Shown here one piece after another: positions 10,107-11,853 of a stretch of 16,552 bases of DNA. The stretch is from a virus (lineage: Duplodnaviria > Heunggongvirae > Uroviricota > Caudoviricetes). Made by a program: the position numbers and the translations under genes. The notes under the pieces are model-generated. The model did no database searches. It was not told the origin of the DNA and saw only the letters and a program-made list of their open reading frames with translations. Numbering within the stretch: the stretch's first letter is position 1; each line of letters starts with the position of its first letter. The stretch is taken from the IMG/VR virus record IMGVR_UViG_2585427768_000007, one strand, 5' to 3'.

Positions 10107-10502
10107 ATGGCAAAAGTATTTACACCAGAAGAGCGGGAAGAAGTGAAGGCGCGCATTGTGGAATTCGTGCGCCTGAGCGGACGAGAAACTTTTCGACAAC
10201 TGGCAGATAAAACGGGTGTCAGTAAGACCGCTATTCGTCGTTTATCTGGTGCGCTTGCGGCCAGTGGTGATGTCTGGCTCTGTGATTGCGGGGTATTTCC
10301 ATCAGAGCAGGCGTATCGCGTATGGCGTAAGACACCGGAGAAGGCTGCTGACCCGACACTGATTCGAAAGTTACCAGACGGAGAAATACGCCGCTACGAC
10401 AGGCGCCTGAATATAATCTGTCGCGAGTGCCGGAAGAGCGAAGCTATGCAGCGTGTACTGACATTTTATCAAGGAAATGTTAGGTATTTTAGACGTTACT
10501 AG
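10107..10502 (+). CDS. Hypothetical phage protein, winged-helix-like N-terminus, Cys-rich C-terminal half
   Basis: 131 aa from ATG 10107 (GGAGG 5 nt upstream). The TAG stop at 10500-10502 lies within the CTAG target-site duplication of IS5. Confidence 0.55.
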   Translation: MAKVFTPEEREEVKARIVEFVRLSGRETFRQLADKTGVSKTAIRRLSGALAASGDVWLCDCGVFPSEQAYRVWRKTPEKAADPTLIRKLPDGEIRRYDRRLNIICRECRKSEAMQRVLTFYQGNVRYFRRY

Positions 10503-11696
10503 GGAAGGTGCGAACAAGTCCCTGATATGAGATCATGTTTGTCATCTGGAGCCATGGAACAGGGTTCATTATGAGTCATCAACTTACCTTCGCCGACAGT
10601 GAATTCAGCAGTAAGCGCCGTCAGACCAGAAAAGAGATTTTCTTGTCCCGCATGGAGCAGATTCTGCCATGGCAAAACATGGTGGAAGTCATCGAGCCGT
10701 TTTACCCCAAGGCTGGTAATGGCCGGCGACCTTATCCGCTGGAAACCATGCTACGCATTCACTGCATGCAGCATTGGTACAACCTGAGCGATGGCGCGAT
10801 GGAAGATGCCCTGTACGAAATCGCCTCCATGCGTCTGTTTGCCCGGTTATCCCTGGATAGCGCCCTGCCGGACCGCACCACCATCATGAATTTCCGCCAC
10901 CTGCTGGAGCAGCATCAACTGGCCCGCCAATTGTTCAAGACCATCAATCGCTGGCTGGCCGAAGCAGGCGTCATGATGACTCAAGGCACCTTGGTCGATG
11001 CCACCATCATTGAGGCACCCAGCTCGACCAAGAACAAAGAGCAGCAACGCGATCCGGAGATGCATCAGACCAAGAAAGGCAATCAGTGGCACTTTGGCAT
11101 GAAGGCCCACATTGGTGTCGATGCCAAGAGTGGCCTGACCCACAGCCTAGTCACCACCGCGGCCAACGAGCATGACCTCAATCAGCTGGGTAATCTGCTT
11201 CATGGAGAGGAGCAATTTGTCTCAGCCGATGCCGGCTACCAAGGAGCGCCACAGCGCGAGGAGCTGGCCGAGGTGGATGTGGACTGGCTGATCGCCGAGC
11301 GCCCCGGCAAGGTAAGAACCTTGAAACAGCATCCACGCAAGAACAAAACGGCCATCAACATCGAATACATGAAAGCCAGCATCCGGGCCAAGGTGGAGCA
11401 CCCGTTTCGCATCATCAAGCGACAGTTCGGCTTCGTGAAAGCCAGATACAAGGGGTTGCTGAAAAACGATAACCAACTGGCGATGTTATTCACGCTGGCC
11501 AACCTGTTTCGGGCGGACCAAATGATACGTCAGTGGGAGAGATCTCACTAAAAACTGGGAATAACGCCTTAAATGGCGAAGAAACGGTCTAAATAGGCTG
11601 ATTCAAGGCATTTACGGGAGAAAAAACGGCTCAAACATGAAGAAATGAAATGACTGAGTCAGCCGAGAAGAATTTCCCCGCTTATTCGCACCTTCC
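10503..11696 (+). mobile_element. IS5 insertion sequence, complete
   Basis: Terminal inverted repeats GGAAGGTGCGAACAAG (10503-10518) and CTTATTCGCACCTTCC (11681-11696); 4-bp direct repeats CTAG at 10499-10502 and 11697-11700; encodes InsH. Confidence 0.9.
10571..11551 (+). CDS. insH: IS5 transposase InsH
   Basis: 326-aa product starting [24 protein letters not shown], recognisably InsH. The track ORF starts 12 codons earlier at 10535. Confidence 0.9.
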
Positions 11697-11853
11697 CTAG
11701 ATTAAAGAGCATTAGTTCAGATGTGAATTGACATTTTCATGGCGCAGGGTAGAGCCAGCGTGGTTGTCCGCTTTGCGTCAAAACCAGATATTACCAGATT
11801 TAGACATATATTCCCGATAGCCCTGCTCTGATGCTACACTCTGTGCTATTTTC

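Follow-up and report, generated by a model that had tools for sequence, protein, structure and literature searches.

The closest described counterparts of the locus considered here, a copy of the insertion sequence (IS) element IS5 within a 16,552-nucleotide stretch of Caudoviricetes DNA (IMG/VR record IMGVR_UViG_2585427768_000007; "the window" refers to this whole stretch), are IS insertions beside genes of Escherichia coli. At bgl, the silencing of an AT-rich target by H-NS is lifted by IS insertion in either orientation. At glpFK, the 177-bp 3′ end of IS5, which contains an IHF site and a permanent bend formed by A-tracts, is necessary and sufficient for activation, and this activation depends on helical phase, the insertion lying 126.5 bp from the mapped transcription start (PMC2753651). 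At fucAO, a flanking Crp site and the weak promoter of the transposase gene ins5A form a fusion promoter whose transcripts cross all of IS5 (PMC11894529), and at nmpC, a co-oriented IS5 with a very weak ins5A promoter of its own is reached by read-through from a host promoter and thereby becomes the principal source of transposition (PMC11677980). The target consensus of IS5 is Py-T-A-Pu, mostly CTAG, and the element is reported to favor such sites in stress-induced destabilized DNA (PMC5493358). Set beside these cases, the insertion in the window is likely to have arisen recently, when an intact IS5 moved by simple transposition to a preferred CTAG in a prophage linker, and to be largely neutral.

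Positions 10503-11696 of the window (plus strand) hold a full-length IS5 of 1194 bp in which every structural hallmark of the element is present (Table 1). These include a length of ~1.2 kb with ~16-bp imperfect inverted repeats of the form GGAAGGTGCGAA(C/T)AAG, whose two arms are complementary at 15 of 16 positions with one mismatch, a 4-bp duplication (CTAG on both sides) at a Py-T-A-Pu site, and a single long DDE transposase open reading frame (Ins5A). Nucleotide identity to annotated E. coli IS5 copies is 99.3-99.6% over the full length, and 3232 records match at least 80% of the element, with the annotation "IS5-like element IS5 family transposase". The Ins5A protein differs by one residue from the copy in strain B1_2 and by one from the copy in SCU-482, while at the nucleotide level 18 differences (17 substitutions and one missing T) separate the window element from that of B1_2. 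Length, 16-bp repeats, CTAG duplication and the 326-aa DDE transposase are thus those of E. coli IS5 (IS5 family, IS5 group); the difference is that the window copy measures 1194 rather than 1195 bp, one T being missing after 11626. A sequencing error was considered as the source of this shorter length and rejected, as the same T is absent at 11626/11627 from the copies of the same insertion in strain JKHS016, a draft assembly (L006) and a further contig (L018), and a deletion common to independent assemblies represents a real sub-variant. The L018 copy is identical to that of the window and the L006 copy has one mismatch. Coordinates, inverted repeats, transposase and identity all bear out the first-pass annotation, made from the sequence alone, of an IS5 with its CTAG duplication at 10499-11700.

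The same site is found unoccupied in E. coli B-1109 and O39:NM F8704-2, where it reads ...GACGTTACTAGATTAAAGAGC... with a single CTAG. When IS5 and one CTAG are removed from the window, the resulting 1200-bp sequence matches B-1109 at 100% in one piece, which argues against a chance resemblance. Contiguity of the flanks in IS5-free relatives had been set as the test of a simple insertion, and in B-1109 they are contiguous. The insertion is simple, with no accompanying rearrangement and no alteration of any coding sequence. The TAG stop codon of the upstream prophage gene, DUF977, consists of the final three bases of the left CTAG, and because the empty site contains a single CTAG, this stop is native and the protein is unchanged by IS5. 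Both protein and stop codon are identical in IS5-free genomes, so that the upstream 131-aa gene is indeed intact, as first annotated. The accompanying statement that the duplication "supplies" the TAG holds only in that the TAG lies within the left CTAG: the empty sites of B-1109 and O39:NM indicate that the stop pre-existed and that duplication only added the copy at 11697-11700.

Comparison with 5426 complete E. coli genomes delimits the spread of the insertion. The junction between DUF977 and the downstream gene queH was recovered as one joined match in 572 of these genomes, JKHS016 with its shortened IS5 among them, and because matches were joined only across gaps of up to 1100 bp, a full-length IS5 is excluded in all 572. 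Both IS5 junctions were found in JKHS016 only, which is also the best complete-genome match (91% of the window covered), and the exact junction was not found in species-representative genomes. Among draft assemblies, located by look-up with the exact DUF977 protein, L006 contains the full insertion and is 99.96% identical to window positions 6107-14502, with seven further similar places, and two draft contigs (L014 and L015) break off inside IS5 at the insertion. The insertion is also present in IMG/VR and metagenome contigs (L018 and L023). The first-pass annotation had proposed that expression of the downstream genes may be altered, and had named as contrary evidence the finding of the same phage/cargo junction in relatives without IS5 together with identical downstream expression; the comparison returned the first of these, ~570 complete genomes having the junction with no full-length IS5 in it.

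The IS5 of JKHS016 is identical to that of the window apart from the loss of 123 bp (10878-11000) between two 10-bp repeats, CCACCATCAT. This deletion (L001, 11600-12670) is in frame, falls exactly between the direct repeats, leaves a transposase coding sequence of 858 nt, and looks like the product of replication slippage. Elsewhere, the window and JKHS016 show no mismatch over 11001-14899, all 31 mismatches being located at 14900-15163, and the window differs from B-1109 across 11697-15215 by the same number of mismatches, 31. This pattern gives no sign that the queH, methylase and endonuclease genes changed after the insertion. These sequence comparisons show a recent insertion that is confined to a single prophage lineage. 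A further IMG/VR record of the same lineage, IMGVR_UViG_2585427748_000007 (L017), has an element at the same CTAG and in the same orientation, with nearly identical flanks (reverse strand, ~6329-7524). This element is 1196 bp long and ISKpn26-like, with 38 differences (96.8% identity); it could represent a second insertion, gene conversion from a different copy, or a chimeric assembly.

The choice of site is consistent with what is known of IS5 targets. The window without its IS contains five CTAG sites in 15.3 kb, and nearest-neighbor energy, a crude proxy for duplex stability and not the Benham SIDD algorithm, ranks the 60-bp stretch that contains the occupied one 4th among the least stable, within the top 1.1% of positions. 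This agrees with the published preference for Py-T-A-Pu in destabilized DNA (PMC5493358). Further IS5-group insertions, at least 4 more events, fall within ~25 bp of linker upstream of different cassettes. An IS5 is located at TTAA 7 nt past the stop of another DUF977 allele (B1_2, C3, C7, OkiPb01675, L019 and L020), and another at TTAG 19 bp left of the window CTAG (SCU-482 and GN05505); at that same TTAG, L021 has a 94.8%-identical IS5 relative, and a divergent IS5-like right end abuts it in the opposite orientation in the metagenome contig L022. Because these copies differ in sequence from the window copy and precede different cassettes, they represent independent events, and the fact that they recur ahead of unrelated cassettes favors target preference over selection for queH activation. 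The linker thus appears to be a recurrent landing site for IS5-group elements, although this is only a mildly new point. Orientation bias was considered as a sign of selection and rejected: 4 of the 5 independent linker events are co-oriented with the operon and 1 is opposite, a 4:1 split that is not significant. In three genomes, the search for opposite orientations also returned an ISKpn26; it lies ~200 bp farther downstream, where it interrupts a methyltransferase gene.

Table 1. Coordinates of the IS5 insertion and of the surrounding prophage features in the window.
Feature	Position	Strand	Remarks
Integrase	1-1020	-	
DUF4224 excisionase-like gene, exonuclease, DicF, dicB, ydfABC, ParE/PaaA2 pair, HTH repressor		-	
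cro-like gene, ydaT, O-like gene (DnaT domain), P, DUF1627, DUF977	DUF1627: 9303-10091	+	Early-right operon
DUF977 (YdaW-like) prophage gene	10107-10502	+	131 aa; Pfam DUF977, E=1.6e-38
Left target-site duplication CTAG	10499-10502		Original target
Left terminal inverted repeat	10503-10518	+	16 bp, GGAAGGTGCGAACAAG
ins5A transposase gene	10571-11551	+	326 aa, intact; Pfam DDE_Tnp_1 (2e-35), DUF772 (3.5e-21)
IS5 3′ "IB" region	11521-11696	+	Eight A-tracts; IHF site TCAA 11603-11606, TT 11611-11612; positions mapped from PMC2753651
Right terminal inverted repeat	11681-11696	+	16 bp, CTTATTCGCACCTTCC
Right target-site duplication CTAG	11697-11700		Second copy, made by duplication
DUF977-queH linker	11701-11874	+	174 bp, whole linker left on queH side of IS5
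queH, epoxyqueuosine reductase (DUF208 family)	11875-12540	+	Intact; Pfam QueH, 9.6e-66
C-5 cytosine DNA methyltransferase	12719-13843	+	Pfam DNA_methylase, 4.2e-54; RefSeq start equivalent to 12725
NgoMIV-family type II restriction endonuclease	13857-14735	+	Pfam NgoMIV_restric, 6.1e-127
Truncated ISCro1 (IS66 family)	15214-16552	-	tnpA, tnpB, ~156 codons of tnpC; Pfam; 99.85% identity to ISCro1 in L004

The window corresponds to the left arm of a Rac/Qin-like lambdoid prophage. In related sequences (JKHS016, L004 and L010-L013), the cassette downstream of DUF977 is followed on the same strand by DUF968, rusA, Q (or DUF1133), tRNAs and lysis genes. By gene order, DUF977 lies mid-way in the early-right (replication/nin) operon, and the earlier description of it as the last phage gene does not stand. 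In the window itself, homology ends at 15214/15215, where a DUF968 stump of ~10 codons is joined to an ISCro1 cut inside tnpC (region 15186-16552). This DUF968-ISCro1 joint is a deletion end-point, and the ISCro1 fragment forms the right edge of the cassette block in the window strain. As DUF968 is intact in L017, the ISCro1-linked truncation occurred later than the IS5 insertion. The exonuclease region (1307-3765, minus strand), which is the most divergent part of the alignment, contains at least 4 open reading frames here against a single 2.47-kb coding sequence in JKHS016; the gene is broken by single-base deletions at 2067, 2128, 2336, 2510 and 3190, and is probably a pseudogene. With the exonuclease frameshifted and DUF968 truncated, the prophage is visibly decaying in the window strain. 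A full-length DicF small RNA (4396-4447, minus strand; 76.7 bits) is found upstream of dicB, as expected in a Qin/Rac-like prophage, and a ParE-toxin/PaaA2-antitoxin pair (5954-6435, minus strand) adjoins the prophage repressor. The immunity region of the B-1109 type lacks this pair and contains a LexA/S24-type repressor.

The block formed by queH, the methylase and the endonuclease, with a small hypothetical gene after the latter, is an accessory cassette inside the nin-equivalent region. The cassette (11701-14735) is located downstream of DUF977 in ~570 complete E. coli genomes, and its GC content is 37-50% against 50-60% for the upstream replication genes. None of the isolated phages in the phage collection contains queH, methylase and endonuclease in full, the best one covering 30%. 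The first-pass annotation took IS5 to mark the left boundary of this cargo, but homology breaks on either side of it. Similarity between the window and B1_2, whose cassette is of the hokD type, fades ~40 nt ahead of the DUF977 stop, left of IS5; with SCU-482, in which a DUF4209 gene follows on the opposite strand, it runs ~95 nt past the CTAG, right of IS5. The first ~95 nt of the linker are common to prophages with other cassettes, and these two breaks place IS5 inside a shared AT-rich linker of ~115 bp, not at a cassette edge. Between queH and the methylase, an Rfam "sok antitoxin (CssrC)" match is found at 12608-12788 (plus strand; 61 bits against a cutoff of 59), along with a promoter-like site, TTGGCG-17-TAGAAT (12573-12601), whose expected transcription start is the start of the sok match. 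Phage records match window positions 12543-12712 beside "MokW/host killer" genes. The arrangement resembles a hok/sok remnant, which may supply the methylase promoter.

Whether the insertion affects its neighbors depends first on its right-hand side. As first annotated, IS5 points into the cargo, with ins5A directed toward queH and the IS5 3′ end facing it, which is the orientation reported for activation of glpFK, fucAO and flhDC (PMC2753651). IS5 might therefore activate queH, and possibly the restriction-modification genes, either in the manner of glpFK, its 177-bp 3′ end boosting a weak promoter native to the 174-bp linker, or in the manner of bgl, the insertion freeing the lower-GC cassette from silencing by H-NS; on balance we consider this unlikely. 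As at glpFK, the IB end is proximal, here to queH, and its IHF core and eight A-tracts are intact; the entire native linker is kept beside queH, and the GC content of the cassette would be compatible with H-NS binding. However, the helical phase that is critical at glpFK is defined from a mapped transcription start at 126.5 bp, whereas here the IS5 3′ end lies 178 bp from the queH ATG and both promoter and start of queH are hypothetical, and the 1-bp deletion at 11626/11627 falls within IB, with the IHF site on one side of it and the three promoter-proximal A-tracts on the other. On the plus strand, a promoter scan found neither a sigma-70-like promoter in 11697-11874 nor, across the right junction, a hybrid one that would pair a -35 in the IS end with a -10 in the flank, and counts of promoter-like sites in the region are at the level of shuffled sequence. 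The linker upstream of queH has no unusual fold (z = -1.0), no Rfam match and no terminator-like site. The fucAO insertion shares the CTAG target and the orientation, but it has a Crp site centered ~61.5 bp upstream of the ins5A transcription start, and the flank left of IS5 in the window has none better than chance: the best candidate is a 3-mismatch match to TGTGA-N6-TCACA at 10478-10493, and Crp-like matches across the window number 72 against 63.8 +/- 7.8 in shuffles. The methylase, moreover, has its own promoter-like site ~880 bp from IS5, the insertion occurs in one lineage only among the ~570 cassette carriers, and target preference explains more simply why the same linker is struck upstream of unrelated cassettes. 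The only promoter-like site that spans a junction is at the left end on the minus strand (10514 to 10486), antisense into DUF977; its -35 (TTCGCA) falls within the left inverted repeat of IS5, its -10 (TAAAAT) is in the 3′ end of DUF977, and it is a consensus match only.

The position of IS5 within the operon raises two other possibilities, which concern transcription arriving from the left. One is that IS5 acts as a polar block that stops immunity-controlled transcription before the nin-region genes and the Q antiterminator, and so helps to lock the prophage in. IS5 does stand between the replication genes and DUF968, rusA and Q, all on the same strand, and a prophage in visible decay would fit a locked-in state. 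Yet at fucAO, transcripts from the ins5A promoter cross the whole element (PMC11894529), which suggests that the polarity of a co-oriented IS5 is not strong; the region has no excess of terminator-like sites over shuffled sequence, and both JKHS016 and L017 retain the downstream phage genes despite IS5. By analogy with fucAO, strong polarity is unlikely, and we regard the polar block as quite improbable. The other possibility is that the co-oriented IS5 is wired to the early promoter of the prophage, such that transposase and transposition would rise on derepression, as for the nmpC copy in K-12; this remains tentative, and we lean against it. The nmpC IS5, in prophage DLP12, is likewise co-oriented with and directly downstream of a transcribed prophage gene, and it is the dominant transposing copy in K-12 by virtue of read-through from PnmpC, the ins5A promoter itself being very weak (PMC11677980). 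In the window, ins5A shares the strand of DUF977 and starts 69 nt past its stop, no terminator being predicted in that interval, and the transposase is intact. Unlike nmpC, which is interrupted and has a characterized Crp-dependent promoter, DUF977 is intact and its early-right promoter is deduced from synteny, and the operon should be repressed in a stable lysogen. Finally, the presence of IS5 on the left and of the ISCro1 fragment on the right of the block could evoke a composite mobile unit carrying queH and the restriction-modification genes. This is effectively refuted: the two elements belong to different IS families rather than being two copies of one IS, ISCro1 breaks off within tnpC and is missing one end, relatives show the two events to be independent (JKHS016 and L017 have IS5 and no ISCro1, and each event is absent in relatives with the other), and the cassette occupies this position in ~570 genomes without a full-length IS5.

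Four points nonetheless count against a neutral insertion at a merely preferred site. By analogy, the geometry is permissive for activation, being exactly that of the known activating insertions, with ins5A promoter-distal and IB proximal. A real regulatory effect may exist, neutrality with respect to expression being what we infer from sequence. The co-orientation of most linker events could hint at selection, and the measure of duplex stability is a crude one. We still favor a recent and largely neutral transposition, in which the target would have been a short, AT-rich, easily melted linker directly 3′ of DUF977 in the early-right operon of a Rac/Qin-like lambdoid prophage, picked through the preference of IS5 for Py-T-A-Pu in destabilized DNA and presumably not kept for queH activation. 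With ins5A reading in the direction of the operon, transcripts started at the early, repressor-controlled promoter would enter the transposase gene, and they may pass through IS5 into queH as at fucAO; that ins5A is in fact transcribed by such read-through on prophage derepression seems to us possible but doubtful. Likewise, the bent 3′ end with its IHF site, now upstream of queH, could act on a weak native promoter. In function the insertion probably matters little, and any regulatory effect is likely to be modest.

Overall, this insertion is an ordinary event, already known in kind and neutral for coding capacity, and alone it has little importance, being one more IS5 copy at a non-disruptive position in a degrading prophage. 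It nevertheless provides a series of lineage markers, from IS5 at the CTAG, through the 123-bp deletion of JKHS016, to the ISCro1-linked truncation of the window strain, and it is a place where IS5 interrupts the contigs of draft assemblies. Having been hit repeatedly, the linker offers a small, clean illustration of the preference of IS5 for Py-T-A-Pu in destabilized DNA, and a natural near-isogenic series in which to judge the effect of IB on an adjacent cassette is available in B-1109, the lineage with IS5 and the JKHS016 variant. A more far-reaching interpretation, which is speculative and in our view very unlikely, is that the ~25-bp AT-rich linker 3′ of DUF977 genes in Rac/Qin-like prophages is a true recurrent landing pad for IS5-group elements, where a co-oriented copy becomes a "master copy" driven by the repressor-controlled early-right promoter. 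If so, bursts of IS5 transposition would be coupled to SOS or prophage derepression, and the IB end would tune the adjacent cassette.

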